DNA from: an uncultured bacterium
Lineage (GTDB): Bacteria > Muiribacteriota > UBA9980
Assembly: GCA_964421195.1 (NCBI GenBank)
Contig: CAYQWL010000003.1
Span: 74 to 64,073, forward strand
Length of the DNA: 64,000 nt
Direction: 5' to 3'
Made by a program: the position numbers and the translations under genes. Below are positions 16,193 through 64,000 of this stretch, one piece after another (within the stretch, counting starts at the first letter, position 1; each line of letters starts with the position of its first letter). The notes beneath the pieces are model-generated. The model worked only from the letters and a program-made list of their open reading frames with translations, was not told the origin of the DNA and did no database searches.

Positions 16193-16263
16193 ATGATAAA
16201 AATAACGGATGCTTCATTTATAACGAACTATTAAAAACTTGATGCACTAATTAAAAGGCTGAT

Positions 16264-17439
16264 ATGAAAATATTATACGATCATCAAATATTCGCTTCGC
16301 AGGTTTATGGCGGCATATCAAGGTATTTTTACGAACTGGCGCATTCGTTATGTTCGCAGTATCAGGACGTGCGCTGTTTGCTGTCTTTGATTTATTCTAA
16401 CAATCATTACTTAAAAGGCGGTAAAACTGTTTTTACTCATAGCGGCGATTATAAACGGATTATCGATTACGATAATTTTTGCGCGGGGTTTAATTTTAAA
16501 GGCAAGTGGAAGTTATTTCAAATAGCGAAAAAAATAAGTTATATTAAAGATTATAGCGCCGCTAATAAAGCGTGCGGCGTTAAAGCCGTTGAAGCAGGCG
16601 ATTATGATATATTTCATCCGACTTATTACGATAATTATTTTTTAAAACATATAGGGCATAAACCTTATGTGCTTACGGTTTACGATATGATACACGAATT
16701 ATTTCCTCATGAATTTCTTCGTGATGAATCTATATGTTATCAAAAGAAAATTTTAATCGAAAATGCCTCGAAAGTAATAGCTATATCTGAAAATACAAAA
16801 AAAGACATAGTAAAATTTTATGGCTGCGAAGAAAAAATAGAGGTCGTACATCTTGGAAATTCACTTATGCCGCCTGAGGCAAATTACGCGGGCGGTAAGG
16901 CCCCGCCGGAAAAATATATTTTATTCGTAGGAAGCCGCCAGAAATATAAAAATTTCGATTTTTTTATTAAATCGGCCGCTCCCATTTTAAAAGATCATAA
17001 TGACCTGAAATTGGTGTGCGCGGGCGGCGGATTATTTAGCATTGATGAAATAAATTTGTTAAAATCACTTGGTGTCGCCGAAAAAGTAACGCAGATGTCT
17101 TTAAGCGACGACGGGCTCGCTTTATTTTATAAAAACGCGCTGGCTTTTATTTTTCCGTCTCTATACGAGGGTTTTGGAATACCGGTTCTTGAATCTTTCG
17201 CGTCAGGCTGTCCTCTTATCGTCAGTAATTCGAGTTCTTTGCCAGAAGTGGCGGGAGACGCCGCTATATATATCGATCCACAGTCCGCCGTTTCGATTCA
17301 AACAGCCGTAGAAAAAGCCGTTACGGATAAAAAACTTCGAGACGAATTACAAGCGAAAGGATTTGAGCAGTTAAAAAAGTTTTCATGGAATATTACCGCT
17401 CAAAAAACGAAAAAAATTTATGAACGAATACTTAATTAA
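16264..17439 (+). CDS. glycosyltransferase family 4
   Basis: EGFGIPVLESFASGCPLIVSNSSSLPEVAG is the GT4 C-terminal motif. Confidence 0.8.
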   Translation: MKILYDHQIFASQVYGGISRYFYELAHSLCSQYQDVRCLLSLIYSNNHYLKGGKTVFTHSGDYKRIIDYDNFCAGFNFKGKWKLFQIAKKISYIKDYSAANKACGVKAVEAGDYDIFHPTYYDNYFLKHIGHKPYVLTVYDMIHELFPHEFLRDESICYQKKILIENASKVIAISENTKKDIVKFYGCEEKIEVVHLGNSLMPPEANYAGGKAPPEKYILFVGSRQKYKNFDFFIKSAAPILKDHNDLKLVCAGGGLFSIDEINLLKSLGVAEKVTQMSLSDDGLALFYKNALAFIFPSLYEGFGIPVLESFASGCPLIVSNSSSLPEVAGDAAIYIDPQSAVSIQTAVEKAVTDKKLRDELQAKGFEQLKKFSWNITAQKTKKIYERILN

Positions 17440-17456
17440 ATTATAAGGCGGCGTTT

Positions 17457-18413
17457 ATGGTTAAAATAATGATTACGGGTTATAACGGGTTTGTCGGCCG
17501 GCACCTTGTGCGTGAATTATATAAAGCCAGGCGCGGCTCAATTGAAGTAATCGGCATCGATAAAACTATAGATTCAGCGGATAATTTGCCGGCCTCCGTC
17601 GAAGAATGTAATTTTCTCGATTTTGCCAATGTGTTTGAAATAATAAAAAAATACTCGCCGGAAGTGATTTTTCATTTCGCCGCTGAAAGTTCCGTCGCGT
17701 CAAGCTGGCATTCACCTTCGTTTATGGTTTCAAATAACGTTAATTCGCAGATTAATCTTTTCGAGGCGCTGCGCAAGCTCGATAAATTAAAAACGCGCGT
17801 GATAATCGCCGGTTCCTCAGAGGAATACGGCGAGGTCGATCCCGAAATGCTGCCGGCAAGCGAAAACTGCGCGTTCCGGCCGCTCAGTTCTTATGCGGTA
17901 AGTAAAATAGCCCAGGATATGACGGCGTTTCAATATTTTAAAAGCTATGGCATGGATGTAATCAGGGTAAGATGCTTTAATCTTTGCGGACCGGGACAGC
18001 TTTCTAAGTACGTTCTCAGTTCGTTCGCGCGTCAGACTGCTCAAATCGAAGCGTCCGGAGCGCGTTCAGGCGTCATAAAAGTCGGAAATCTCGAAATCGC
18101 AAGAGATTATACCGACGTTCGCGACGCTTCTAATTACTATATCGAGTTAGCTGAAAAAGCAGTTTCCGGCGAGGTATATAATCTTTGCTCCGGCAAAATT
18201 TATTATTTAAAAGACTTATTGAATATTTTAATTAAAAAATCTAAAATTGATATTCGAGTTGAAACCGATCCCGAAAAATTAAGGCCCTCCGATTTAAAAT
18301 TAATTTATGGCGATAATTCTAAGTTAAACGCATTATGTAATTACAGGCCGCGTTATAATATCGAAACTACTTTAACTGAAATGCTCGATTATTGGCGAGA
18401 AAATATATCATAA
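17457..18413 (+). CDS. NAD-dependent epimerase/dehydratase (extended SDR; GDP-6-deoxyhexose reductase-like)
   Basis: ITGYNGFVGRHL Rossmann motif and a YAVSK catalytic motif. 318 aa. Confidence 0.7.
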   Translation: MVKIMITGYNGFVGRHLVRELYKARRGSIEVIGIDKTIDSADNLPASVEECNFLDFANVFEIIKKYSPEVIFHFAAESSVASSWHSPSFMVSNNVNSQINLFEALRKLDKLKTRVIIAGSSEEYGEVDPEMLPASENCAFRPLSSYAVSKIAQDMTAFQYFKSYGMDVIRVRCFNLCGPGQLSKYVLSSFARQTAQIEASGARSGVIKVGNLEIARDYTDVRDASNYYIELAEKAVSGEVYNLCSGKIYYLKDLLNILIKKSKIDIRVETDPEKLRPSDLKLIYGDNSKLNALCNYRPRYNIETTLTEMLDYWRENIS

Positions 18414-18533
18414 GAAGGTATAGCGTTTAAAGCGGCTTTTTAAAAACCGCACAAATCGATTTTTGGTTTGATACAGTATGAACAAAATCAATGTCAGGCA
18501 AATTGAATAATGAATGGGAATTAATTATTTTTT

Positions 18534-19397
18534 ATGAACGATACGAAACTACATATAATCCTTCCGGTCCACAACCGCAGGAGCGTGACCGAAAAGTTCA
18601 TAAATTGCCTTGCCGCGCAGTCGTATCAAAACTATCATCTTATATTGGTAGATGACGGTTCGACCGACGGCACGGCTGAAATGGTGCGCGCGAAGATTAA
18701 AAGCCTCACCATTATCCGCGGCGGCGGAAATCTCTGGTGGGGAGGCGCGCTGCATAAAGGGTATTTATGGCTTAAAAATCATGACGCTTTGCTTTCGGAT
18801 GCGGTTTTAATCTGTAACGATGACGTAACGTTCGATAATGATTATCTCGAAACCGGCCTTGAATTTTTAGAGAAAACGCCGGATGCGATGATATTATCTA
18901 CGGTTTATACTTCCGATGGCGAATTTCACGAAGCCGGCGCTGTAGCGGATTTTAAAAACTTTACTTTTAAAAATGCGGCGCCGGGTGAAATAATCAATTG
19001 CGCTACAACGCGCGGCCTGTTTTTTACCGTGTCATCTTTTTTTAAGACGGGCGGATTTTATCCGTTTTTGCTGCCGCATTATCTTTCTGATTTTGAATTT
19101 ACTATCAGGGCTCACCGGCGCGGAATAAAAATTACCGCCTGCAATAAATTAAAGCTTTATATAGATATGTCTTCCACGGGATATTTCGGCTCTATCGACG
19201 ACGAAGGATTTTTAATTTTTTTAAAAAAGTTTTTTTCGATTAAATATCCGAATAATCCGGTATATAAATTAATATTCGTTTTTCTGGCGTGTCCCTGGCG
19301 TTATATAGCGCAAAATACGTTAAAAGTATTATGGACGGCATTCAAGCATATATTTTTTCACGTCAGAAAATCGTTTAAGAATTATTTTAAAAAATGA
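18534..19397 (+). CDS. glycosyltransferase family 2
   Basis: HIILPVHNRRSVTEKFINCLAAQSYQNYHLILVDDGSTDGT is a GT2 signature. Confidence 0.75.
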   Translation: MNDTKLHIILPVHNRRSVTEKFINCLAAQSYQNYHLILVDDGSTDGTAEMVRAKIKSLTIIRGGGNLWWGGALHKGYLWLKNHDALLSDAVLICNDDVTFDNDYLETGLEFLEKTPDAMILSTVYTSDGEFHEAGAVADFKNFTFKNAAPGEIINCATTRGLFFTVSSFFKTGGFYPFLLPHYLSDFEFTIRAHRRGIKITACNKLKLYIDMSSTGYFGSIDDEGFLIFLKKFFSIKYPNNPVYKLIFVFLACPWRYIAQNTLKVLWTAFKHIFFHVRKSFKNYFKK

Positions 19398-19489
19398 CTT
19401 TTTAGCGTTAAAAATAAGTATTAAAAGCTTAAATTTGATTTATAGATTAAATTATGTAAATAAACGAATAAGTAAAGGAAGAAAAAAAT

Positions 19490-20452
19490 ATGAAACCGTT
19501 AAGAATACTTGTAACCGGCGGGGCAGGGTTTATAGGAAGCCATCTTTGTGAGAAACTTTTAAAAGAAGGGCATGAAGTAATATGTCTTGATAATTTTTTT
19601 ACGGGGCGTAAAAAAAATGTCAGTCATTTACTCGATGATAAAAAATTCGAACTGATAAGGCATGATATTACCGAAGAAATAAGGCTTGAATCAGATCGTA
19701 TATATAATCTGGCGTGTCCGGCGTCGCCCGTTCATTATCAGTATAACGCGATTAAAACCGTTAAAACTAATGTAATGGGCGCTCTGATCACTCTCGGCAT
19801 GGCTAAAAGGGTGAAAGCGAGAATATTGCAAGCATCTACCAGCGAGGTTTATGGCGATCCGGCCGTCCACCCGCAGGTTGAAGGATACTGGGGCAACGTC
19901 AATCCGATCGGCATCAGAAGCTGCTATGATGAAGGAAAGCGCGTCGCCGAAACTTTATTCATGGATTATCACAGACAGAATAATGTTCAGGTGAGAATCG
20001 TACGTATTTTCAATACTTACGGTCCGCGTATGCTTGAAAACGACGGCCGCGTGGTGTCTAATTTTATCGTGCAGGCCCTTAAAAATGAAGATATAACTAT
20101 TTATGGCAGCGGAGAGCAGACACGTAGTTTTTGTTTCGTAAGCGATTTGATAGACGGCATGGTCCGTATGATGGAAAATACCGAAGATTTTATCGGACCG
20201 GTTAATCTCGGCAATCCTCAGGAATATACCATACTTGAGCTTGCTAAAACCATTATAGAATTAACCGGCTCGAAATCAAAACTGGTTTTCAAGCCATTAC
20301 CAGAAGACGATCCGTGCCGCAGAAAGCCCGATATATCACTTGCTCAAACAAAGCTTGGCGGATGGTCGCCGCAGGTTCCGGTGAAAGATGGTTTGCTTCG
20401 GACTATAGAATATTTTGAAAATGAATTAAAAGACGTGCATGACGCAAAGTAA
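19490..20452 (+). CDS. uxs: UDP-glucuronate decarboxylase (UDP-xylose synthase)
   Basis: [38 protein letters not shown] is the hallmark N-terminus of UXS. A YDEGK catalytic motif is present. 320 aa. Confidence 0.85.
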
Positions 20453-20556
20453 TGACCTGTTGATTGCAATCGCGAATAGCGCGGTATAAATTTTTATAAA
20501 AGATATTTCAGGATTCGAGGCCGCAATAATTGCCAACATAATGTTATGATATAAAT

Positions 20557-21510
20557 ATGGGAGATGCTATGAATGAAATTACATTACATGTGCCGGTTTT
20601 ATTTTTAGTTTTCAATCGGCCTGATACGACCGGACGGGTTTTTGAGCGTATAAGGGCGGCACGGCCGGCGAAGCTTTTTATTGCCGCGGATGGCCCGCGT
20701 GCCGGACGTAAAGACGATATTGAAAAATGCGGAGCGGTTAAAAAAATCGTGTCCGAAATTGATTGGCCGTGTAATGTCGAAACGCTTTTTCGTGATAAAA
20801 ATCTCGGCTGCGGACGGGCGGTAAGTTCAGCTATTTCATGGTTTTTTGAAAAAAACGAAGCTGGCATTATACTCGAAGATGATTGCCTGCCTGATATTAC
20901 GTTTTTTAGCTATGCGTCCGAGCTGCTTGAAAAATATAAGGAAGACGAACGCATGGGCATAATTTGCGGCGCGAATTTTCAGTTCGGCAAAAGGCGCGGC
21001 ACGGCCGGTTATTATTTTTCGCGTTATCCGCATATATGGGGCTGGGCTTCATGGCGGCGAGTATGGCATAGTTATGATTTCGGCATGAATAATTGGGAAA
21101 ATATAAAAAACGGCGGCTGGCTTATGGATTATTTTGGCGATGCCGTTCGCTGTAAATATTGGAGCGGCATTTTTGACGCGGTCCGCACGGGTAAAATAAA
21201 CACGTGGGACTATCAACTGTTTTTAACGTTCATAGCCAATAATTATTTATCTATAGTGCCTGCTGTAAATATGATATCTAATTTAGGATATTGCGGTGAA
21301 GCTACCCATACGGCTGGCGGAAACGACAGACTTTCCGAAATCGCCGCCGGTGCGTTTGAATTCCCGATAGTGCATCCCGATTTTATAATCCGGGATTCGG
21401 CAGCCGATAAAAGGACTGAAAAGCTTTTTTTTAAACCGCACGGAACATTAGAATTACTCAAACATAATATAAAAACTTCTATAAAGCGAATGTTAAAGAT
21501 TAAAAAATAA
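20557..21510 (+). CDS. putative GT-A fold nucleotide-sugar transferase (HlpA-like family)
   Basis: An N-terminal beta-alpha fold (HVPVLFLVFNRPD...LFIAADGP) with the ILEDDCLPD acidic motif resembles GT-A transferases. The family assignment is uncertain. Confidence 0.45.
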   Translation: MGDAMNEITLHVPVLFLVFNRPDTTGRVFERIRAARPAKLFIAADGPRAGRKDDIEKCGAVKKIVSEIDWPCNVETLFRDKNLGCGRAVSSAISWFFEKNEAGIILEDDCLPDITFFSYASELLEKYKEDERMGIICGANFQFGKRRGTAGYYFSRYPHIWGWASWRRVWHSYDFGMNNWENIKNGGWLMDYFGDAVRCKYWSGIFDAVRTGKINTWDYQLFLTFIANNYLSIVPAVNMISNLGYCGEATHTAGGNDRLSEIAAGAFEFPIVHPDFIIRDSAADKRTEKLFFKPHGTLELLKHNIKTSIKRMLKIKK

Positions 21511-43252: not shown

Positions 43253-44317
43253 ATGCTTATGAATGAAAAACGAATAAAAGTCTTAATAATAGATGATTCA
43301 GCGTTGGTCCGCGAAATCCTTTCAAAAGGGCTCGCGCTCGACAAAGAGCTCGAAATAGTCGGAACGGCTTCCGACCCTTTTATCGCTCGCGATAAAATCA
43401 TTGAATTAAAACCCGATGTTTTAACGCTCGATGTTGAAATGCCGCGTATGGACGGGGTCGAATTTTTAAAAAAACTAATGCCGCAATACCCGCTTCCGGT
43501 AGTAATCGTAAGCGCATTAACTAAAAAAGGCGCCCGGATAACTTTAGAAGCTTTTGAAGCCGGCGCCGTCGAAGTCGTTACCAAACCTTCAAGCGATGTC
43601 GCCCGCGGCCTTACCGCCATGCTCAACGATCTTCGGGCCAAAATAAAAATAGCCGCCGGCACTAACGTATCGGCATGGAAAATAAATAAAAAACCCTCCG
43701 CCGTTATTAAAGCCGACAGTAAAGCGCTTGCCGAATCAACCGATAAAGTAATAGCGATAGGCGCTTCTACAGGCGGCACGGAAGCTATCCGTAAAATTTT
43801 AAAAACTTTTCCAGCCTCGATGCCGGGCGTAATTATCGTTCAGCACATGCCGGCTGGTTTTACGGCGCATTTCGCCGAAAGTCTCAACGCGAACTGCGCT
43901 ATGGAAGTTAAAGAGGCCGTCCATGGCGACCGCATTATGCCCGGCAGAGTGCTCGTAGCGCCAGGCGGCGAAAAACAATGCAGAGTTTTACGTTCCGGCG
44001 GTATTTATATAGCCGATTTAAAACAGGGCGAAAAAGTATGCGGCCATTGTCCGTCGGTAGAAGTAATGTTCGAATCCGTCGCTAAATACGCAGGAGCTAA
44101 CGCTATAGGAATCATTCTCACGGGTATGGGAAGCGACGGCGCCGGCGGAATGCTTATGATGCGTCAGGCGGGTGCGCGAACCATAGCGCAGGACGAACAG
44201 AGCTCGGTGGTTTTCGGCATGCCGAAAGTAGCTTATGAACGCGGCGGCGCCGAAAAATTAGTTCCGCTTTCAGATATAACGCAACGGGTTATATCTATTT
44301 TAGAAGGCCGCGAATAA
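43253..44317 (+). CDS. cheB: chemotaxis response regulator protein-glutamate methylesterase CheB
   Basis: REC domain (VLIIDDSALVRE...VLTLDVEMPRMDG) plus a methylesterase domain with IAIGASTGGTEA and HMPAGFT motifs. Confidence 0.9.
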   Translation: MLMNEKRIKVLIIDDSALVREILSKGLALDKELEIVGTASDPFIARDKIIELKPDVLTLDVEMPRMDGVEFLKKLMPQYPLPVVIVSALTKKGARITLEAFEAGAVEVVTKPSSDVARGLTAMLNDLRAKIKIAAGTNVSAWKINKKPSAVIKADSKALAESTDKVIAIGASTGGTEAIRKILKTFPASMPGVIIVQHMPAGFTAHFAESLNANCAMEVKEAVHGDRIMPGRVLVAPGGEKQCRVLRSGGIYIADLKQGEKVCGHCPSVEVMFESVAKYAGANAIGIILTGMGSDGAGGMLMMRQAGARTIAQDEQSSVVFGMPKVAYERGGAEKLVPLSDITQRVISILEGRE

Positions 44318-44361
44318 GGCTGTGAATAAAGTTTCCATTTATTAAATATAAGGAACAAATT

Positions 44362-44847
44362 ATGAATAATATAATCGTAGGCATAGGCGGAATAGGAATT
44401 TCAAATAAACCGGGCGATATAATAAAAACACTGGCGCTCGGTTCATGCGTGGGCGTTATGGTTTATTCGCCCAAACTATCGCTTGCCGGCCTGATTCACG
44501 TAGCACTGCCCGATTCAAAAATAAACGCCAGCCTCGCTCATGAAAAGCCATGTTATTTCGCGGATACCGGTATTCCTTTTTTACTGGCGGCGCTCGCTAA
44601 ATTCGGATGCCTGCTTTACAGCGATTTAATTATTAAATTAGCGGGAGGCGCTAATATAATGGATCCAGAACAGCGTTTTGATATAGGAACGCGCAATATT
44701 CTCGCCGTCAAAAAAAATCTGTGGCGTTATAAACTCGGACCGCTCGCAGAAGACACCGCCGATACGATCAGCCGTACGGTAAAACTCGAAGTCGCTACGG
44801 GACGGGTTATTTTATCTTCGCCTTCAATTGGGGAGTGGGAAATATGA
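44362..44847 (+). CDS. cheD: chemoreceptor glutamine deamidase CheD
   Basis: 161 aa. LGSCVGVMVYSP matches the CheD catalytic Cys region. The 3' end overlaps cheY. Confidence 0.8.
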   Translation: MNNIIVGIGGIGISNKPGDIIKTLALGSCVGVMVYSPKLSLAGLIHVALPDSKINASLAHEKPCYFADTGIPFLLAALAKFGCLLYSDLIIKLAGGANIMDPEQRFDIGTRNILAVKKNLWRYKLGPLAEDTADTISRTVKLEVATGRVILSSPSIGEWEI

Positions 44848-45215
44848 GCATAGAAACCATAATGATAGTAGATGATTCAGCTATGGCAAGGCTTATCATG
44901 AAACAATGCCTTGAAATAGCCGGATACCGCGGCAAACAATTTATCGAAGCGATCAACGGAAAAGACGCGCTCGAAAAATTAATTAAACAAAAAGCGGACC
45001 TCGTCGTTACTGACCTTAATATGCCGGTAATGGAAGGAAACGCTTTATTAGACAATATAAAAAATACGCCGGAGCTCAAAGAAACACCGGTGATAATAAT
45101 TACAAGCAACAGCAATTCCGCGCGTGAAACGGAATTAAAAAATAAAGGGGCCTTCGCGGTTATCAACAAACCGATTTCACCGGCCGTAATCCATAAAATA
45201 TGTTCTCAATTATAA
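44835..45215 (+). CDS. cheY: chemotaxis response regulator CheY
   Basis: 126 aa REC domain with IMIVDDSAMAR, VVTDLNMPVMEG, IIITSNS and VINKP. Confidence 0.85.
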   Translation: MGNMSIETIMIVDDSAMARLIMKQCLEIAGYRGKQFIEAINGKDALEKLIKQKADLVVTDLNMPVMEGNALLDNIKNTPELKETPVIIITSNSNSARETELKNKGAFAVINKPISPAVIHKICSQL

Positions 45216-45227
45216 AGGAGGAAAACC

Positions 45228-45701
45228 GTGAATCAGTCCTGCGATTATAAAAAAATACTGACGGATTCAATAATGCGCACTCTCGAAGAAATCGCCTTCA
45301 TCCAGCTTATCGAAATTCAGACGGAAACGCTCGATACGACGAGCCCCGATTACATGCAGGACATGCTTTCCGTATATATGCCGGTTAAAGCCAAATATGG
45401 CATTTTAATAATGAGCGCTTCAAGTGAAATATTAGAAGAAACGGCGTGCAACATATTTGCATTAGAACCCGGAACACGGCCTGGACCCGAAATGATCAAC
45501 GACACTCTTTCAGAATTATTAAATACGATTTCCGGACAATTCATGAGGGCCATAACTCCCGTAAACGAATTTTACGAACTCGGACTTCCGGTAACTGGAA
45601 ATTTTGATCTAAAAACGATCGAAGGCGAAGCCGTCAACTGCGCTTTTGAAAACGAAAACGGCGCGAAACTTTTAATTTCTTATATAAAAATATCGAAATA
45701 A
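45228..45701 (+). CDS. cheX: CheX/CheC-family CheY-P phosphatase (single-motif, CheX-like)
   Basis: 157 aa. LSELLNTISGQF fits the CheC/CheX-family E-x2-N active motif. Size and single motif favour CheX, and the gene lies directly after cheY. Confidence 0.55.
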   Translation: MNQSCDYKKILTDSIMRTLEEIAFIQLIEIQTETLDTTSPDYMQDMLSVYMPVKAKYGILIMSASSEILEETACNIFALEPGTRPGPEMINDTLSELLNTISGQFMRAITPVNEFYELGLPVTGNFDLKTIEGEAVNCAFENENGAKLLISYIKISK

Positions 45702-54865: not shown

Positions 54866-54895
54866 ATTATATAATAAAAATCATTCAATTGTCAA
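54866..54895 (-). promoter_or_regulatory. candidate sigma70-type promoter for rpmF-plsX-fab operon (TTGACA - 18 nt - TATAAT on minus strand)
   Basis: The minus-strand sequence reads agttcTTGACAattgaatgatttttattaTATAATttact, divergent from the pel promoter. Confidence 0.3.
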
Positions 54896-54953
54896 GAACT
54901 GTTTTTATTTGTTTTTTATTTTATAAAAAATTATTATCTTCAAAACTTAATCG

Positions 54954-54982
54954 TTGACATTAAATTGTTGTTAATGTATTAT
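54954..54982 (+). promoter_or_regulatory. candidate sigma70-type promoter for the pel-like locus (TTGACA - 17 nt - TATTAT)
   Basis: TTGACA at 54954-54959 and TATTAT at 54977-54982, about 120 nt upstream of the first pel-locus ORF. Confidence 0.4.
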
Positions 54983-55102: not shown

Positions 55103-56248
55103 ATGCAGTTTAATATTTTTTATTTATTTTTAAACGGATATTTCAAAGCGCGGCAAACCGGAAGCGAAGTAACCCTGACACCAAAAACTAATATCAATTT
55201 AACATTTTTAGCCAATCGTTTCTGGCGGTTTTTAATTATTTCGCCGGGAATGTATTTTTTATTTTTATGTTTTTTACTTTATTTTACCATAATGCCGGAT
55301 CGCGGCTCCGCATTCGCTCAAAATAATTTTCATTCTGACCTTTTCAACGATGTCAATTCTTATGCTAACGCTTATGGAAATTATAATACAAAAGCGCTTA
55401 ATAAATTTTTAAAATTCGATCTGATTATTATAGAACCGTACAATGTACCGGATATCGATTTTTTAAAAAAACTCAAAAAAAAGGGGATTAAAATCATAGC
55501 ATATATAAGCGTCGGCGAAGCCGACTATAACAGACGTTATTTAAAAAACTGGCGTTCTTATCACAACACTCCCGATAACCCGAATATTCCACGTTCAAAA
55601 ATCAGCCCCGGCAACGCCGTTTTTTTAGGCGAAAACCCTGGATGGCCGGGATCGTATTACGCAGACACATCAAATGAAAAATGGCATAATATAATATTAC
55701 GCGAAGAACTTCCTTACATTTTATGGCTTGGAGGAGGCATATATGACGGTTTTTTTCTTGACGTTCTCGATGCGGCCGAAGTTTATAAAACAAAAAATAA
55801 CGGACATGAAATGACGAACGGTCTTATAAAACTCATTAAGAAAATCAAAGAAACTTATCCTGATAAAATTTTAATAGCAAACCGCGGATTCTCTATTTTA
55901 AAAGAAATCGCCCCTTATATAGACGCTCTTAAATATGAAGAATTTACCTCCGCTTATGGAAATATAAAAAATGAAGCGCATTATAAAAAATATTATTTAA
56001 AAATCGATAAAAAAGGACGCCGTATTAATTCAGACGAAATCGAAATTATTAAAGAAGCGCTGAAAATAAACCCGCGAATACTCATACTTGTTTTAGATCA
56101 CATAAAAACAAAACCACGCAATATAAAAATCGCAAAACTTTGCTTTCGAGAATCTCAAAAATTAGCCGATAATTTAAATTGTAAGGTTTTATGGTACGCC
56201 AATGCGGTGGAGCAGGATCTGCCGCTCTGGCCGGAATTCAAAAAATAG
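55103..56248 (+). CDS. GH114-like (PelA hydrolase-domain-like) putative exopolysaccharide glycoside hydrolase, secreted or membrane-anchored
   Basis: FDLIIIEPYNVPDIDFLKKLKKKGIKIIAYISVGEADYNRRY resembles the Glyco_hydro_114 TIM-barrel core of PelA_h and TM1410. A hydrophobic N-terminus is present. The alternative start at 55250 (MYFLFLCFLLYFTIM...AFA) would give a signal peptide. Confidence 0.5.
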   Translation: MQFNIFYLFLNGYFKARQTGSEVTLTPKTNINLTFLANRFWRFLIISPGMYFLFLCFLLYFTIMPDRGSAFAQNNFHSDLFNDVNSYANAYGNYNTKALNKFLKFDLIIIEPYNVPDIDFLKKLKKKGIKIIAYISVGEADYNRRYLKNWRSYHNTPDNPNIPRSKISPGNAVFLGENPGWPGSYYADTSNEKWHNIILREELPYILWLGGGIYDGFFLDVLDAAEVYKTKNNGHEMTNGLIKLIKKIKETYPDKILIANRGFSILKEIAPYIDALKYEEFTSAYGNIKNEAHYKKYYLKIDKKGRRINSDEIEIIKEALKINPRILILVLDHIKTKPRNIKIAKLCFRESQKLADNLNCKVLWYANAVEQDLPLWPEFKK

Positions 56249-56363
56249 CGGCCTTCCGGCAATATCTAACAAATTAACCACGCCGCATCGTTCCATTTAT
56301 AAACTCAAGGATTTTTCAAGGATTTTAATGTAGCTTTTTAACATGAATTATGATATAATTCAT

Positions 56364-56400
56364 AGGTTACATTTATCGATTATGTTACAGGTTACATTTA
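56364..56400 (+). promoter_or_regulatory. 12-nt direct repeat AGGTTACATTTA x2 upstream of pelD
   Basis: Exact copies at 56364-56375 and 56389-56400, 13 nt apart, in the 295-nt gap between the pelA-like gene and pelD. Confidence 0.3.
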
Positions 56401-56543
56401 CGATAAAATTAGTAAACTTTTAAAAAAATATAATAATAATTAAAAAAATATGATAATAAGTGCCATAATTAAAAATATGCATAAAATAATGCATTTTATT
56501 ATTAAACAGATTACGACCAGAACTAGAACGAGAGACGCAAGAA

Positions 56544-57944
56544 GTGTATCTAATAGAATCCGTTATATTTTCGGTATTTATTGCCGCTATAAATTACTTT
56601 TATTATCCATTGTCTTTTTTATTTATTGGAGACGCGGCCAATCCATACCAGATTTTATCAATATGCATGGCGGTAAGATACGGCTCATCTAAAGGCTTTT
56701 TTTCTTTTATCATTATAATTTCAATGGCTATAACGGCTGGAACTTTAAACAGCTCGGCTGATAGGCTATTACAAAACGAATCGATATATTTCATGCTTTC
56801 GGTACTTCTTACAACGCATATAGCGGGACAATTAAAAGATCATCAGGACTATCAATATAACCGCCTTAAATCGAAACACGAAAAATTATCGGCCGATTTT
56901 GAAAAATGCGCGCTCAATAACCTTATGCTCGAAGACGCCAACAAAGAGCTCACAAAAAAAATAGTAACCCGCTTTCAATCGCTTTCGACGGTTTATGAAG
57001 CGGCAAAAAGGCTTGAAACCCTCGATTACGATAAATTATTCCCTGCGGTGCTTCAAATACTCGAAAACCATATAAACGTTAAATCAGCGGCGTTTTACAT
57101 AAGAGAAAACGAACAACTTATTTTAAAAGCCGTTTCGGGTTCGTTCGGCGAAGAATTAGAAAATCGAATTAATATTTCAAGCCGCGCTTTATTCAATTAC
57201 GTCATAAAAAACAAAAAAACCATTTCATTACTTGACGACCTTCTATTAAACGAATCGTTGCCGGACAAAAAAGAATTCGAACGTTTTACCGCCGTATCGC
57301 CCGTTATATTCAATGACGTAATTTATGGAATTATCGCCGTGAAAGACCTTTCCTTCGATAATTTAAACGACACGTCGATAAGGATGATCTCCATGGTCGC
57401 CGAATGGGCCGGAATGTGCCTTAATAAAATCAATAATTTTACTCAAATCGAATCTGAAGTTCCGTTCGACCAAAAAATAAAATGTTATAAACCCGGCCAT
57501 TTAAAGCAATTAATAAAATCAGAAATATATAAAGCCGTAAGATATAAGCTCGAATTATCAATATGCAAAATCAGTATAATTAGTAATGATGTTATACCCG
57601 ATAATATTAAAACTTCGGTATATTTTTCTATAGGTTATATAATTAAAAATTCGATAAGGGAAATCGATATTTACGGCGCGTGCATGCAAAACGGATGTTT
57701 TATAATAATACTTCCGGTAACGGATATAAAAGGGGCGGGCGTTCTTCTTTCACGTTTAATCTCCGAAATTAATAATTTTAAAATAAAGCCGTATCACACC
57801 GACGAAGAGTTACATTTCGAAGCGAGCGCTCATTCGCTTGATGAAATAGCCGGCGGCAAAAAAATCGAAAAAATGACTTTAGGAAATTTAAACGAAGAAT
57901 CATATAAAATTTACAAAAAAATGATAGAGTATATAAACATTTAA
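56544..57944 (+). CDS. pelD: PelD-like c-di-GMP receptor (N-terminal TM helices, GAF domain, degenerate GGDEF domain with intact RxxD I-site)
   Basis: About 4 TM helices are followed by a GAF-like region. The C-terminal IREIDIYGACMQNGCFIIILPVTDIKGAGVLLSRLISEI aligns to the GGDEF domain C-terminus, with QNGCF replacing GG(D/E)EF and an upstream REID (RxxD). It sits next to pelF and pelG homologs. Confidence 0.7.
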   Translation: MYLIESVIFSVFIAAINYFYYPLSFLFIGDAANPYQILSICMAVRYGSSKGFFSFIIIISMAITAGTLNSSADRLLQNESIYFMLSVLLTTHIAGQLKDHQDYQYNRLKSKHEKLSADFEKCALNNLMLEDANKELTKKIVTRFQSLSTVYEAAKRLETLDYDKLFPAVLQILENHINVKSAAFYIRENEQLILKAVSGSFGEELENRINISSRALFNYVIKNKKTISLLDDLLLNESLPDKKEFERFTAVSPVIFNDVIYGIIAVKDLSFDNLNDTSIRMISMVAEWAGMCLNKINNFTQIESEVPFDQKIKCYKPGHLKQLIKSEIYKAVRYKLELSICKISIISNDVIPDNIKTSVYFSIGYIIKNSIREIDIYGACMQNGCFIIILPVTDIKGAGVLLSRLISEINNFKIKPYHTDEELHFEASAHSLDEIAGGKKIEKMTLGNLNEESYKIYKKMIEYINI

Positions 57945-57985: not shown

Positions 57986-60160
57986 ATGCTTCAGGATAAA
58001 ATTTATTATACATCAATATTTACATGGCTTTCGATAATGATGTTATTCGTTATTTTTTCGCTTTTAACAGGGCTGCCCCCGGCGGATATTTTTATTACGC
58101 GATTTATTTTGATTAACACAGCGGGAGCTATTATATTCCTGCTGACATACGAGTTAATATATTCGTTAAATTTTGATTTTAAAGACGAAAACAATTTCAC
58201 AAAAAAAGATCTCACTTTTTTATTTCTTCTTATATTCGGTCCGGCGGGTTTATTACCGGTCAGCTTCATAATTCTCGCCTGCCTCGACAAACCTTCAAGA
58301 AATTTCGATACTATTATGACTGAAGACATAATTAAAGAGACAATTAAAACATCTTTTAATTATATAGACGTAGCGGCTGAATATCAAAAACAGATGTTTA
58401 AAGAAGCGGTTATCGACTCGATAATGTCGGAAAATAATTTCAAAAAAAGAAACGCCATCGACATATTATCGAAAATGAAAAACAGACAGGCGATAGCCGC
58501 GCTAAAATTAATGGCAAAAGACAAAGATCATGAAATAAGATTTATGGCCATAAATAAACTTAACGCGATAGAAGACGAATACATGCATGAATTCGACTGG
58601 TACAAAACCGCTATAAAAGTATGCGGCGCGGTTCCCGAATTAGTCTTTCAATACGCGGCGCTTATTTTAAAATTTTGCCGCCTTGAAATAATGTATAACG
58701 ATCTTTCTTATTTATATTATAAAAAAGCGGCCGGCCTTTTTAAAGCGCTTATCGATGAAAATCATTACCCGGACGAATCTTTATACGCTTATGCGGTATG
58801 CCTCCGAAATACGTCAAATGCATCCGGCGCGGCGGCGCTTCTTGAAAAGCGCCTTAACGAATTAAGCGGCAAAGCCGTCGATGAACTTGCCGCATGTTAC
58901 TACGACATAAAAAATAATAACGGACTGAAATATTTAATCGATAAAGCCGGAAAAAATGAAATACAATACGGCCCGAAACTTGGAGGCATAATTTCTAAAA
59001 ATACCGACGAAAAGTCAGAAAACGACGAATACGACGGCAGCGGCAATGAAAACTCCAGTCAAAATGAATTATACAGTATTTACAATATAAACGAATTTCT
59101 TCAAATATTTAAAAGCTGCCAGAATCTAAATTTCGACCAATATTACGCGCGCCTTAAAACGGTAACAAATACAGCCATGTATCCCGCTATTTTTAATGAA
59201 ATTTACAAAATGCCAAAATTTTCTAAAATATTATATTTAAAGCTGTTGAAAGGTCAGCTCGAAACGGAAAACGCAAGAAATTTAAAATATTTTTTATATG
59301 ATCCCGACCCGGCGCTCGTTTTTTTTGCCGCCGATGTATTATGCACCACGGAATTACCTCTGCGCAATGAAATATTTACAGGCCTTATTTTACATCCGCT
59401 CGACGAAGTAAAAATACTGTCAGTAAAATTTGCCGGTTTGAAAAGAATGCGCAGAACCGTCAGACTTCTTATAAAATTATTAAAATCTTCAAAAACGCAA
59501 CCGCCTCTAAAAAAAGAAATAATTACCGCCCTGATTAAAATAGGCGATAATTATGCTAATTCAGCAATATCCGCGGGTTTAAAAAACGATGAAGATCATT
59601 TTAAAATTCATGCGCTCAACGAAATTAAAAATTTTAACGCCCGTTTATTTCTCGACGATATCATTCAATTAATAGATTCATCGCCGATCGCCATTAAAAT
59701 CGCCGGTTTGAACGCAGCCGCTTCTTTTGGAGGCGAACAGGTTTTTAAAAAATTAACGCGCTATCTTAAAGATGACTGCGATGATATTTTACGCGAAGCG
59801 GCAACCGCCGAATTCTGCCGTGCGATGCGTCCTGAAGCCATAGAATGCGCCGTTAAATATTATTCCCGCGCGGCGGATAATAAAAAAATCGAAATTTATA
59901 ATAATTATTTTTCTTATTTAAGTAAAACCGCCATAGAAAATTATATAAAAAAATTAATAGATTCAAAAAATTATATCGGAAATGATTTTTTAAATATAAT
60001 TTTTAAATTTCGTCATGAGCTTGTATCATCCATAGCGGAAAATAATAAAAAAGAAGATAACGCTTTTTACGAATATTGCGAACAATTCATAAGCCGGCCA
60101 AAAATAAAACCGAACAAAGATATGCCTGCAGGCGCAAAACCGGGTGAGCGCAATGGCTGA
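57986..60160 (+). CDS. PelE-like membrane-anchored TPR/HEAT-repeat protein (enlarged, 724 aa)
   Basis: Four predicted N-terminal TM helices are followed by ~600 aa of alpha-helical TPR/HEAT-like repeats (KLMAKDKDHEIRFMAINKL..., DPDPALVFFAADVL..., DILREAATAEF). Lies between the pelD and pelF homologs. Confidence 0.5.
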   Translation: MLQDKIYYTSIFTWLSIMMLFVIFSLLTGLPPADIFITRFILINTAGAIIFLLTYELIYSLNFDFKDENNFTKKDLTFLFLLIFGPAGLLPVSFIILACLDKPSRNFDTIMTEDIIKETIKTSFNYIDVAAEYQKQMFKEAVIDSIMSENNFKKRNAIDILSKMKNRQAIAALKLMAKDKDHEIRFMAINKLNAIEDEYMHEFDWYKTAIKVCGAVPELVFQYAALILKFCRLEIMYNDLSYLYYKKAAGLFKALIDENHYPDESLYAYAVCLRNTSNASGAAALLEKRLNELSGKAVDELAACYYDIKNNNGLKYLIDKAGKNEIQYGPKLGGIISKNTDEKSENDEYDGSGNENSSQNELYSIYNINEFLQIFKSCQNLNFDQYYARLKTVTNTAMYPAIFNEIYKMPKFSKILYLKLLKGQLETENARNLKYFLYDPDPALVFFAADVLCTTELPLRNEIFTGLILHPLDEVKILSVKFAGLKRMRRTVRLLIKLLKSSKTQPPLKKEIITALIKIGDNYANSAISAGLKNDEDHFKIHALNEIKNFNARLFLDDIIQLIDSSPIAIKIAGLNAAASFGGEQVFKKLTRYLKDDCDDILREAATAEFCRAMRPEAIECAVKYYSRAADNKKIEIYNNYFSYLSKTAIENYIKKLIDSKNYIGNDFLNIIFKFRHELVSSIAENNKKEDNAFYEYCEQFISRPKIKPNKDMPAGAKPGERNG

Positions 60161-61631
60161 TATATGTCTGATACTCGAAGGCACATATCCTTATATAACC
60201 GGAGGCGTATCGAGCTGGATACACGATATAATAACAAACCTCGATGATTTTACCTTCGATATTATAGCGATTTTACCTTCTAAAAATTATGTACGTGAAT
60301 ATAAATTTAAAATACCGCCAAACGTAAATACAATAAATAACCTTTATTTAAACGAAATAAATGATGAATCGAATAAAATATCAAGCTCTATTAAAAATCA
60401 AAATTTTTTTAATGAATTATCGGCATGTTTCATCGGGCAAAAAGAACTTAAATTAAATGAATTAAGCTCTATCGTTAATATTTTCGATAAATATAAACCA
60501 TCTCTCGGAGATTTTATAAATACAAAAGAAGGATGGAATTTTTTTTTAAAATTATATGAAACTTTCGATCCTGATTTTTCATTTATAGATTTTTTCTGGA
60601 CTACGCGTTTTATATTAGTTCCTATAATCAACATTATAAATTTTATACCGCCTGACTGCAAATGTTTTCACAGCGTTTCTACAGGCTATGCCGGCCTGTT
60701 AGCGGGACTTTCGCGGCTTCGTTTTAAAAAACCGCTTCTATTAACCGAACATGGTATTTATACGAATGAAAGGCTCCTCGAAATAATCAATGCCAGATGG
60801 ATATATGATCAGCATATAGATTCAATAGATATCAGCCGTGATCTATCGCCGCTAAAAAGATTGTGGATAAATCTTTTTATCTATATAGGAAAAATTACCT
60901 ATTACTGTTCTGACAAAATAATAACGCTTTTTAAAGAAAACATGCGGCTTCAAATTAAATTAGGCGCGCCGGCCGAAAAATGCGTAGTAATACCTAACGG
61001 CATCGATTGCGCGCGTTTTAACCAGAAAAGAACTAAAATACCATCAGCGCCTGATTATACGGTAGGTTTCGCGGGAAGAATAGTTCAAATTAAAGATATT
61101 AAAACCCTGTTATACGCCGCCAGATTTGTTATCGACAGACTGCCCGGCGCGAAATTTATATTAAAAGGGCCGATCGATGAAGAAAAATCATATTATAAAG
61201 AGTGCCGCGTGCTCGCCGAATTGCTTAACTTAAATAACGGAGTAATATTCGCGGGGCCGGGAGACGTAAGCGGTTTTTATAAAGATATAGATCTCTTAGT
61301 ACTTTCTTCCATTTCAGAAGCTCAACCGCTCGCGCTTTTAGAAGCTAATTTATGCAAAGTGCCAGTAGTTTCGACAGATACAGGCGCCGTGCGCGAACTC
61401 ATTTATGGAGCTGATGAAGAAGATGCCAGAATAGGCCCGTCAGGCGCCGTAGTACCCGTTAAATCACCCGAAGCGCTCGGCTTACAAATTATTAAATTAT
61501 TGACCGAACCCGATACGAACATCAAATTCGGAGAAAACGGAGAAAAAAGAGTAATGCGTTATTATAAAAAAGAAGATTTAATAAATAAATACCATAAAAT
61601 ATATAGTGAATTAATAGAGGAGCGCGATTAA
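60144..61631 (+). CDS. pelF: PelF-like cytoplasmic GT4 glycosyltransferase
   Basis: The N-terminus ADICLILEGTYPYITGGVSSWIHDII matches the PelF-specific N-terminal domain as recalled. The C-terminal GT4 E-x7-E region is PLALLEANLCKVPVVSTDTG. 495 aa. Confidence 0.8.
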   Translation: MSAMADICLILEGTYPYITGGVSSWIHDIITNLDDFTFDIIAILPSKNYVREYKFKIPPNVNTINNLYLNEINDESNKISSSIKNQNFFNELSACFIGQKELKLNELSSIVNIFDKYKPSLGDFINTKEGWNFFLKLYETFDPDFSFIDFFWTTRFILVPIINIINFIPPDCKCFHSVSTGYAGLLAGLSRLRFKKPLLLTEHGIYTNERLLEIINARWIYDQHIDSIDISRDLSPLKRLWINLFIYIGKITYYCSDKIITLFKENMRLQIKLGAPAEKCVVIPNGIDCARFNQKRTKIPSAPDYTVGFAGRIVQIKDIKTLLYAARFVIDRLPGAKFILKGPIDEEKSYYKECRVLAELLNLNNGVIFAGPGDVSGFYKDIDLLVLSSISEAQPLALLEANLCKVPVVSTDTGAVRELIYGADEEDARIGPSGAVVPVKSPEALGLQIIKLLTEPDTNIKFGENGEKRVMRYYKKEDLINKYHKIYSELIEERD

Positions 61632-61632
61632 A

Positions 61633-63117
61633 ATGGCGGGAATAGGGTTCAGATTTCGTGAAATAGCCGAAAACGGAAGCTATCTCGGCGCCGTAAAAAG
61701 CTATGCTTATTCTTCAATTTTCGCGGCGGGGCCGTGGATACTGACCATGATCACCATATCCGCGTTAAACGCCATAGCGCCTCCCGAAATAAGCGGAACC
61801 ACATTGCTCGAATTCCGCGCGCTTCTTTCATACATTTTTTCATTCAGCCTCATTCTTACCGGAACTTTTCAACTCGCGATAGTAAGATATATTGCAGATA
61901 AAATTTCCGACAAAGACCGCGAAGAACTATTATCGCTTTTCATAGGCACTAACTTTTTTTTCTCAATTTTATCCATAACATTCGGCGCATTTTTCTTTTC
62001 AGGCACGAACGGCTCCGCAATTTTAAGAATAACGGCGATAATGCTTTTTTGCGTAATCTGCCTTATATGGAACGGAATGGCTTTTTTAACCGCTATTAAA
62101 GATTATAAATTCATAATTTTCGTTTTTTCTTCCGGAACAATCGCTTCTATAATTTTATGCGCATATCTAAAAAATATTTATGGTTTAAATGGATATCTAT
62201 TCGGATTTTTTCTGGGACAATTATATGTTTTTTCAGGAATCACCGCCGAAATAACCCGCGAATTTTTTAATAAAAAAGGAGTAACCTATTATTTTTTCGG
62301 CTATTTTAAAAAATATTTTATTCTAATTATCGCGGGACTCGCTTATAATACCGGAATCTGGATAGATAAATTTATAATCTGGAATTCGGCTGAAAACCAG
62401 TGTTATCTTGGAAATTTAAGAGTATCGGGTAATTTCGATCTGGCGGTTTTCGTGGCATACTTATCCATAATACCCGCGCTTGGATATTTTTTCGCCCGAA
62501 TCGAAACCGACTTTTACGATCTTTATAAATCATATTTTAATTCAATATTTAATAAAGACAGCTTTCAAAAAATAAATCAAAAAAAAGATGATATTATAAA
62601 AATGGCCGACGAATCGATATTAAATCTCATTAAAATACAGGGAACACTGACTTTATTATGCTATTTAAATGCCGATATCATAATGAAACGGTTCGGAGGA
62701 GGAGGCGATGCCGTCTGCGCTTCCATTTATAAATTAGCCGTAATAGGAGTATTTTTTCATATTTTATTTTTATTTTTAACTATTTTTATGATGTATTTCG
62801 AATTTTACAGAGCCCTTTTAACGGCCAATTTATCTTTTTTAATACTCAACGCCGCGCTCACCCGGTATGCGTTATGTTATGATTACAATCCGGCGGCGGG
62901 CTATACGGTGGCGGCGGGCATATGCTGTTTACTTTCTTTTTTTCTTTTTCATTATAAAATTAAAGATCTTCCATTTTATACCTTCGTAGAACAACCGATA
63001 ACTCCGGCGCTCGAAGAAAAAGCAGTATTCGATGCTTTTAAAACCCTTGAAACGGCGGGCATCAAAAACGTATGTAAATCAGAAACGCTCAAAGGAGTAA
63101 ATATAGATGAGCTATAA
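61633..63117 (+). CDS. pelG: PelG-like polytopic membrane protein (MOP/MATE-like exporter family)
   Basis: MAGIGFRFREIAENGSYLGAVKSYAYSSIFAAGPW matches the characteristic PelG N-terminus (MAGIGFEL...). About 12 TM helices. 494 aa. Confidence 0.8.
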   Translation: MAGIGFRFREIAENGSYLGAVKSYAYSSIFAAGPWILTMITISALNAIAPPEISGTTLLEFRALLSYIFSFSLILTGTFQLAIVRYIADKISDKDREELLSLFIGTNFFFSILSITFGAFFFSGTNGSAILRITAIMLFCVICLIWNGMAFLTAIKDYKFIIFVFSSGTIASIILCAYLKNIYGLNGYLFGFFLGQLYVFSGITAEITREFFNKKGVTYYFFGYFKKYFILIIAGLAYNTGIWIDKFIIWNSAENQCYLGNLRVSGNFDLAVFVAYLSIIPALGYFFARIETDFYDLYKSYFNSIFNKDSFQKINQKKDDIIKMADESILNLIKIQGTLTLLCYLNADIIMKRFGGGGDAVCASIYKLAVIGVFFHILFLFLTIFMMYFEFYRALLTANLSFLILNAALTRYALCYDYNPAAGYTVAAGICCLLSFFLFHYKIKDLPFYTFVEQPITPALEEKAVFDAFKTLETAGIKNVCKSETLKGVNIDEL

Positions 63118-64000
63118 AAATAAAATTATATTATTATTTACACTATTTGAATTATCATCGGTTATATTTTTTTCCGCCGTCCCGCTTCGCGGCGAAGACA
63201 GTATTTACAGACAAAACGAATTAAACATAAGCCTCGATATAAAAAACGCTCTTTCAGATTATAAAAGTGCGGCGCAAACCGCTTTATATGCAGGTTCTCT
63301 TGAAATCGCCCTTAAATTCGGCAAAAAAAGTCTTGAAACAAAAGCGGACGACACAGCTACGGTTCTTATAGTGGCGCAGTCTCTCTTATGGACTTCGAAA
63401 GCGGACGAGGCGGAAAAATATTATAAAAAATACTTCAAACTAAAAGGAACGAAAACTGCTTCTATTTATTATCAGTTTGCCGAATGTCTTAATTCATCCG
63501 GCAAAGCCGATAAGGCTTTGCATTACTTTAACGAAGCCATGAAATTAGCCGGCACGGACGAAACGGAACTTAAAGGCAATATCAATATCGCTAAAGGTTA
63601 TTATTATCTCGAAAAAAACGATTTTATAAAAGCAAAAAATTATTTTTACAGCGCTCTTAAATATGATCTCAAAGCGAAATATCTTGAAGCGATGGGCGAT
63701 TATCACGTCAAATTAGCGGCCGTACAAATTCCTGAAATTTATTTCGATATCGAAACGAAAACCATAATTAAAAAATATTCAGATAAAGATACCAGGCGCG
63801 CTTATGATTATTATAAAAGAAGCCTGAACGAAAAACCCGATAATAAATACATTAAAATTAAAATAAGCGACGCGCGCTGGGCGCTCGGCAAAAAGAAACA
63901 GGCGGTAAGCCTGATGCGCGCCGCGGCGGACGAAACTTTATCTAACTACGCCTTTAGCAGGCTTTCATATTTTTTAAAAGAAGAAAATAAAACAAACGAA
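63107..64000 (+). CDS. secreted TPR-repeat protein, 3'-truncated by the window end (candidate PelB-like N-terminus)
   Basis: Read manually as 63107 ATG (AAGGAG RBS 8 nt upstream, 11-nt overlap with the pelG end) to 64000 with no stop. It shows MSYKNKIILLFTLFELSSVIFFSAVP (signal-peptide-like) followed by TPR-like helical repeats. It is absent from the ORF track because it lacks a stop. Confidence 0.45.
   Translation, partial: MSYKNKIILLFTLFELSSVIFFSAVPLRGEDSIYRQNELNISLDIKNALSDYKSAAQTALYAGSLEIALKFGKKSLETKADDTATVLIVAQSLLWTSKADEAEKYYKKYFKLKGTKTASIYYQFAECLNSSGKADKALHYFNEAMKLAGTDETELKGNINIAKGYYYLEKNDFIKAKNYFYSALKYDLKAKYLEAMGDYHVKLAAVQIPEIYFDIETKTIIKKYSDKDTRRAYDYYKRSLNEKPDNKYIKIKISDARWALGKKKQAVSLMRAAADETLSNYAFSRLSYFLKEENKTNE

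Follow-up and report, generated by a model that had tools for sequence, protein, structure and literature searches.

The closest described counterparts of the protein considered here are the PelD receptors of Pseudomonas aeruginosa and Bacillus cereus, which bind cyclic dimeric GMP (c-di-GMP) through a triad of I-site residues, R367/D370/R402 in the former and R363/D366/R395 in the latter (PMC7112168). Binding by the triad has been shown by isothermal titration calorimetry and mutagenesis and is needed for biofilms to form, and in B. cereus PelD alanine substitutions in the triad abolish both c-di-GMP binding (dissociation constant, KD, ~100 nM) and the formation of biofilm (PMC7112168). The pel operons are known in many phyla, with pelA and pelB rearranged, and some copies of PelD are so divergent that iterative hidden Markov models (HMMs) are needed for their detection (PMC7112194). 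Here we analyse a 64,000-nucleotide stretch of contig CAYQWL010000003.1 from an uncultured bacterium (hereafter the window), in which an open reading frame (ORF) of 466 aa on the + strand, with GTG as its start codon, encodes a PelD-like protein at 56544-57944, exactly the position given in an earlier note made from the sequence alone. As with pelD of P. aeruginosa, the gene lies directly upstream of counterparts of pelE, pelF and pelG.

We read this protein, with a probability of about 0.8, as orthologous to PelD, which serves the Pel exopolysaccharide synthase complex as its c-di-GMP receptor in the inner membrane. The reading follows from the architecture of the protein, its lost active site and kept I-site, its place in a pel cluster, and its profile and Foldseek matches. 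The earlier note had proposed a PelD-like receptor, and the proposal held in each of its testable aspects: architecture, catalytic loss, I-site triad, placement among pel genes and conserved synteny. The protein most likely gates Pel synthesis via c-di-GMP at the I-site, as judged by analogy with the characterised receptors. It is a highly divergent addition, from an uncultured lineage, to a receptor family that is already well characterised. Only three features of the case depart from the textbook, namely cysteines specific to the clade around the dead hairpin, a protein of twice the size in the PelE position, and a domain that standard models miss.

The PelD of P. aeruginosa (PA3061; 4DN0, 4DMZ, 4ETX, 4ETZ, 4EU0, 4EUV) has 455 aa and comprises four transmembrane (TM) helices, a juxtamembrane helix, a GAF domain and a degenerate GGDEF domain; the window protein has these regions in the same order, with its four N-terminal helices as a prediction. 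Its I-site triad is matched by R372/D375/R404, and the profile and fold matches to it cover both cytoplasmic domains. The two proteins differ in that only ~14% of their residues are identical in a structural alignment, and in the spacing between the two arginines of the triad (32 residues in the window protein, 35 in P. aeruginosa). Their operons differ as well: in the window the hydrolase has a gene of its own, which lies upstream, and the tetratricopeptide repeat (TPR), PelB-like gene follows pelG and does not precede pelD.

The PelD of B. cereus ATCC 10987, encoded in the operon pelDEA_DAFG, is likewise divergent, with a GGDEF domain that escapes BLAST and HMMER (Whitfield et al. 2020, PMC7112168). 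Compared by published residue numbers, its arginine spacing (R363 to R395) is 32, identical to that of the window protein, and the two loci share the gene order D-E-...-F-G and a hydrolase part of PelA that forms a separate gene. Unlike the window, the monoderm B. cereus has no PelB-like TPR/porin gene, and the large TPR protein after pelG suggests a diderm-type export step in the lineage studied here. Also unlike B. cereus, the window carries no deacetylase gene between pelE and pelF.

Homologues, domains and fold

A search of 5.8 billion clustered proteins recovered only 11 close relatives (36-76% identity), all of them metagenomic, with one cluster member named at source 'GAF domain-containing protein [Candidatus Wallbacteria bacterium]'. 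Among species-representative genomes, the close relatives are carried by uncultured metagenome-assembled genomes (MAGs), namely UBP16_UBA6123, ADurb.Bin243 and several 'uncultured bacterium' bins. The N-terminus of the window protein (MYLIES) agrees with those of its homologues; an 80-aa mechanical ORF at 56450-56692, which overlaps the start of the gene, is probably spurious. Among 1.84 billion representatives, a profile of the 11 sequences (A1) matched 5208 proteins at E<=1e-3, of which 128 reached E<=1e-30, and most of the 5208 are ~455-475 aa long and match end-to-end. For a second iteration 88 of these matches were aligned (A2, mean identity 26%), and Pfam GAF_3 is found in 63 and Pfam GGDEF in 49 of them. 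The A2 profile matches solved GGDEF domains with E values down to 7.8e-21 and the P. aeruginosa PelD crystal-structure sequences with E 1.6e-15, the latter over profile positions 174-443, which include the GAF and GGDEF domains. Because its distant members P0011 and P0022 keep a pel context (see below), the wider family found by the profile is that of PelD, to which the window gene belongs.

The membrane region occupies residues 1-98 (56544-56837; this and all further features lie on the + strand unless stated otherwise). The full-length AlphaFold2 (AF2) model, with a mean predicted local distance difference test (pLDDT) score of 75, places four helices within residues 2-98 (2-20, 34-46, 48-68 and 78-98), the last of which runs on as a continuous helix 78-159. 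The earlier note had counted about four TM helices, and this agrees with the model, while by hydropathy only the segments 1-19 and 50-70 pass a strict Kyte-Doolittle threshold; a number of four is plausible. In the family alignment 9 of the 88 members match Pfam DUF4118, which we take to be a membrane domain. The juxtamembrane helix (residues ~99-159; 56838-57020) is continuous with the last TM helix and is likely a dimerising coiled coil, and the motif NKELTKKIVTRFQSLSTVYEAA in this region is strongly conserved among the 11 close homologues.

Beyond this helix the full-length model shows an alpha/beta GAF domain, a linker helix and a domain of beta-alpha-alpha-beta-beta-alpha-beta topology. 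The GAF domain (residues ~160-300; 57021-57443), which the earlier note had described as a GAF-like region, matches Pfam GAF_2 with E 2.6e-4, under the gathering score and the best of the sub-threshold GAF matches, and the A1 profile matches the GAF domain of 4g3v with E 0.0013. In Foldseek searches of the AF2 model against PDB, isolated GAF structures are matched at target-normalised TM-scores (TMt) of 0.61-0.71. The degenerate GGDEF-fold domain (residues ~309-445; 57468-57878) is supported by the family HMM and by Foldseek. A model of residues 150-466 reached a pLDDT of 84.5, with values >90 across much of the C-terminal domain. The top Foldseek match was the GAF-GGDEF cyclase Dcsbis (E 1e-10), every PelD crystal form was matched over ~295-300 aligned columns (E 5e-10 to 3e-9), and isolated GGDEF domains were matched at TMt 0.64-0.69 (WspR 0.64-0.67, 3ign 0.69). 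The AlphaFold check that the earlier note had called for, together with the family profile, thus upholds the GGDEF fold that it assigned to the C-terminal domain.

The degenerate active site and the I-site

Nucleotides 57657-57755 translate as REIDIYGACMQNGCFIIILPVTDIKGAGVLLSR, in which REID corresponds to residues 372-375 and QNGCF to residues 382-386. To map these residues on those of characterised cyclases we used an HMM of the GGDEF-region columns of A2, which aligns both PleD (E 1.9e-14) and the window protein (E 1.5e-43). The PleD GGDEF sequence was checked against PDB, where one residue differs from the PleD chains, and the numbering is that of 2wb4 and 9g85. The hhalign comparison of the 11-sequence alignment with the PleD GGDEF domain returned the expected register at a non-significant E of 0.2. 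Residue equivalences to P. aeruginosa PelD run via PleD and the residue numbers of PMC7112168. Cyclases retrieved by peptide pattern read IKNxIRDID-xxxRY-GGDEF-xIILPET where the window protein has IKNSIREID-IYGAC-MQNGCF-IIILPVT.

In the frame of the family HMM, each of the PleD residues that we take to be catalytic or in contact with substrate is substituted: D327 corresponds to S344, N335 to P352, D344 to T357, R366 to A379, E370 to N383 and E371 to C385. The guanine-binding segment has a 4-residue deletion. The hairpin that replaces GG(D/E)EF (M381-Q-N-G-C-F386; 57684-57701) is one residue longer than that of canonical cyclases, and GGDEF aligns with QNGCF when strand beta3 is followed or with MQN(G)CF in the HMM; the motif reads as degenerate and dead in either register. 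The replacement by QNGCF that the earlier note had reported is thus present in the translation. Could the protein nevertheless be an active or conditionally active GAF-GGDEF cyclase that feeds c-di-GMP locally to the Pel machinery? The top Foldseek matches include active GAF-GGDEF cyclases such as Dcsbis, and Pfam GGDEF is matched by more than half of the family (49/88), but all of the catalytic and GTP-binding positions are replaced, including the arginine equivalent to R366 by alanine, the guanine segment is shortened, and GG[DE]EF is absent. With MQNGCF in place of GGEEF, serine, proline and threonine in place of D327, N335 and D344, and no match to PF00990, this reading is effectively refuted as far as sequence can tell, and we give it next to no credence.

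The three PleD residues that we take to form the I-site are retained, with R359 corresponding to R372, D362 to D375 and R390 to R404. In the AF2 model of residues 150-466 the REID motif (57657-57668), five to six residues ahead of the former GGDEF hairpin, lies between helix alpha2 and strand beta2 (376-380), which is the topology of an I-site; it is followed by the turn MQNG and by strand beta3 (385-391), and R404 (57753-57755) lies on the helix after this strand, alpha3. The earlier note was right to place REID at the I-site, and had missed R404, the third residue of the site. REID is the sole R-x-x-D in the protein, as found by eye, and the evidence for a putative I-site lies in the position and conservation of this motif, not in the mere occurrence of RxxD.

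None of the three residues varies among the 11 close homologues, the most distant of which is 36% identical, whereas adjacent hairpin residues do. In the wider family R372 is kept in 75 of 88 members (85%) and D375 in 83 (94%), the RxxD is intact in 75, and both residues rank with the best-conserved columns of the alignment, D375 within the ten most conserved. GG[DE]EF occurs anywhere in the sequence in a single member of the 88, and the hairpin columns are almost random. A conserved I-site beside a decayed active site indicates that selection has kept the former, which is the signature expected of a receptor.

This pattern bears most directly on the main rival of our reading, that the protein is a structural PelD subunit, blind to c-di-GMP, which scaffolds PelE, PelF and PelG through its membrane and GAF regions and in which the triad is a relic of the fold. 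Such a subunit would have a precedent in streptococcal pel loci, which function with a PelD that has no GGDEF domain (PMC7112168) and for which a scaffolding role of this kind has been proposed. It would also be consistent with a window in which enzymes of c-di-GMP metabolism are not seen and with a GGDEF domain too divergent for Pfam. However, the streptococci dropped the whole domain and did not retain a dead one, and a relic is hard to reconcile with a triad that is invariant in the clade as its hairpin neighbours vary, or with the retention of R372 and D375 across 88 members at ~20% identity with a scrambled active site, which points to selection on the I-site. We consider a signal-blind PelD unlikely.

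The I-site-regulated GAF-GGDEF and Rec-GGDEF diguanylate cyclases (Dcsbis/PA2771, PleD, WspR and DgcR) have the same GGDEF fold as the window protein and share with it the RxxD and the alpha3 arginine, which in these enzymes serve product inhibition by c-di-GMP. Unlike the window protein, which has lost all of these, they keep an intact GG(D/E)EF and the metal- and GTP-binding residues. The I-site is the sole nucleotide site that remains in the window protein, and its output would be the control of a polysaccharide synthase, not feedback inhibition. A receptor for another nucleotide at the same pocket, such as cyclic GMP-AMP (cGAMP), cyclic dimeric AMP (c-di-AMP) or the guanosine phosphates (p)ppGpp, or for a ligand of the GAF domain, would imply that Pel synthesis in this lineage answers to a signal other than c-di-GMP. 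The PleD structures 9g85 and 9g86, which hold c-di-GMP plus ppGpp or pppGpp, lend this some appeal, as do the well folded and conserved GAF domain and the extra clade-conserved cysteines around the degenerate hairpin. On the other side, the GAF domain in the PelD of P. aeruginosa is not known to bind a ligand, and no sequence feature points to another ligand. In addition, an RxxD with a distal arginine is the specific signature of a c-di-GMP I-site, validated in two distant PelD proteins (PMC7112168), and we regard a different ligand as improbable.

The cysteines are a property of the clade. C314 and C341 are invariant, and each of C292, C380 and C385 is kept by at least 90% of its members (nt 57417-57701). 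On either side of the hairpin turn stand C380 and C385 (YGAC-MQNG-CF), at positions where cysteine is rare in the wider family; P0011, the most divergent homologue, has threonine at both. Judging from these patterns, the cysteines may form a redox or metal site. A bolder proposal, and one with only a slim chance of being correct, is that the dead hairpin has been reused as a second sensory site, in which C314, C341, C380 and C385 would act as a redox- or metal-responsive switch, so that Pel synthesis would respond jointly to c-di-GMP at the I-site and to a signal (thiol, redox or metal) at the former active site (A-site), and the HEAT-repeat PelE, unusually large at 724 aa, would be an adaptor specific to the lineage.

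The pel cluster and its synteny

The pel operon in the window is complete-looking. Downstream of the PelD-like gene, which ends 41 nt before it, the PelE position is occupied by a gene for a 724-aa protein with N-terminal hydrophobic segments and HEAT repeats (57986-60160; Pfam HEAT_2 PF13646, E 3.1e-17). It is followed by pelF, a glycosyltransferase of family GT4 (60144-61631; 425.6 bits to the NCBIfam PelF equivalog, cut-off 100; Pfam DUF3492 and Glycos_transf_1), by pelG, a polytopic membrane protein (61633-63117; Pfam PelG over its full length, E 1.1e-107, 361 bits), and by the 5' part of a gene for a PelB-like TPR protein whose N-terminus carries a hydrophobic or signal segment (63107-64000; Pfam TPR_12 and TPR_19), which runs off the window. 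Within the run of genes that opens with the one in the PelE position and closes with the TPR gene, neighbours overlap or are separated by gaps of <=1 base: the start of pelF overlaps the end of the HEAT gene by 17 nt, and the TPR gene overlaps the end of pelG.

Upstream of the PelD-like gene lies a gene for a membrane-anchored GH114/TM1410-like hydrolase (55103-56248; Pfam PF03537, E 8.7e-11), the counterpart of the hydrolase domain of PelA. The protein has one hydrophobic segment (residues 40-64), and the true start of the gene is probably downstream of 55103. In three related loci (L002-L004) this gene is conserved upstream of pelD. The gap between the two genes (56249-56543) is 295 nt long and very AT-rich, with the genes downstream tightly packed, and contains no match to an Rfam family, including c-di-GMP riboswitches.

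The order D-E-F-G-TPR recurs in five independent MAGs whose contigs are long enough, at 52-78% protein identity (loci L001 and L006 are the same contig). The HEAT gene is syntenic in all related loci. At 724 aa its product is about twice the size of the PelE of P. aeruginosa (~330 aa) and of the 343-aa HEAT protein that a distant pel cluster (L014/L015) encodes at this position, and between the two sub-clades it is only 32% identical, compared with 59% for PelF. P0011, at about 36% identity, lies in a cluster of PelD-like, HEAT, PelF and PelG genes. P0022, at 23% identity, is preceded by GH114, TPR and TPR genes and followed by HEAT (343 aa) and PelF genes and an ORF cut by the end of the contig, which is essentially the canonical order pelA-B-D-E-F-G. 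In L001 the homologue of the TPR protein has 941 aa (16227-19052) and follows pelG, and after it comes a gene for >660 aa at 19128-21117 with a sub-threshold polysaccharide-deacetylase match (E 0.0038). The TPR gene and the gene downstream of it may supply the PelB-like and PelA-deacetylase-like components of the system, with the latter outside the window.

On the opposite strand, upstream of the cluster, lie the housekeeping genes plsX-fabD-fabG-fabF-rnc. The divergent region 54866-54982 contains back-to-back sigma-70-like promoters that match almost perfectly, one for plsX on the - strand (12/12) and one for the GH114 gene on the + strand (11/12). A scan for promoters and terminators around the operon showed no enrichment over shuffled sequences.

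Weighing the reading and the source of the signal

Several points weigh against the reading of the protein as a c-di-GMP receptor of the PelD family. The homology to PelD rests on an iterated profile and a predicted structure, as single-sequence and 11-sequence profile searches reach PelD only at E ~1. A phmmer search of the single protein against PDB sequences gave no significant GGDEF or PelD match, the 466-aa protein has no Pfam GGDEF or PelD_GGDEF match at E<=1, and its NCBIfam GGDEF match (E 0.024) is far under the 37-bit cut-off of that model. Against PelD the model has a low global TM-score (0.34-0.39, rmsd, the root-mean-square deviation, ~18 A), which we attribute to a predicted orientation of the GAF and GGDEF domains that differs from that in P. 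aeruginosa PelD, because the single-domain matches are good. The geometry of the I-site is judged in the model from secondary-structure position only, and no more than 63 of the 88 family members have R or K at position 404. Finally, the 64-kb window contains no GG[DE]EF in six frames and no EAL-type motif, and Rfam returned no riboswitch or other family in the whole window at the gathering score or in the operon leaders at E<=1. Nor can c-di-GMP turnover be read from the HD protein on the - strand at 1511-2056 (181 aa, HDIGK); we rejected this candidate, as it belongs to the generic HD family PF01966 and is not HD-GYP.

The earlier note had remarked on the lack of a diguanylate cyclase in the window. 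The absence itself stands in the six-frame motif scan and in the HMM scan, in which no other ORF of the window matches the GGDEF-domain HMM (next best E 0.15), but it is not the anomaly that the remark implied, and we rejected it as a meaningful observation. A cyclase missing from 64 kb is not unusual; the cyclases that control Pel in P. aeruginosa are encoded away from the pel operon. In B. cereus the cyclase CdgF and the phosphodiesterase CdgE control Pel, and they were found by going through all of the cdg genes of the genome (PMC7112168).

By analogy with these systems, cyclases from other parts of the genome would make the c-di-GMP that binds to R372, D375 and R404 at the I-site, and binding would rearrange the GAF-GGDEF module with respect to the membrane region of the protein. 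The complex of PelD, PelE, PelF and PelG would then polymerise and export a polymer rich in N-acetylgalactosamine (GalNAc), the GH114 enzyme would trim it, and the TPR protein and the product of the gene downstream would handle export and modification. The PelD-like protein would be a post-translational checkpoint that transmits the level of the second messenger to the production of biofilm matrix.

If the PelD reading is correct, Pel synthesis gated by c-di-GMP extends to an uncultured lineage whose MAGs are labelled Candidatus Wallbacteria, UBP16 and ADurb.Bin243. The finding leaves the understanding of the PelD mechanism unchanged. It also illustrates that receptors of the PelD type are systematically missed by standard domain annotation, which assigned only 'GAF domain-containing protein' here, and censuses of c-di-GMP effectors thus undercount them.

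Elsewhere in the window, a chemotaxis block on the + strand (43253-45701) encodes a CheB methylesterase/response regulator, CheD and a CheX-like phosphatase that is below the Pfam cut-off, and larger genes lie upstream of it at 33.6-43.1 kb. The segment 30000-34000 has a GC content of 0.30-0.32, lower than the ~0.38-0.44 of the remainder, and near 30 kb the GC skew changes sign.

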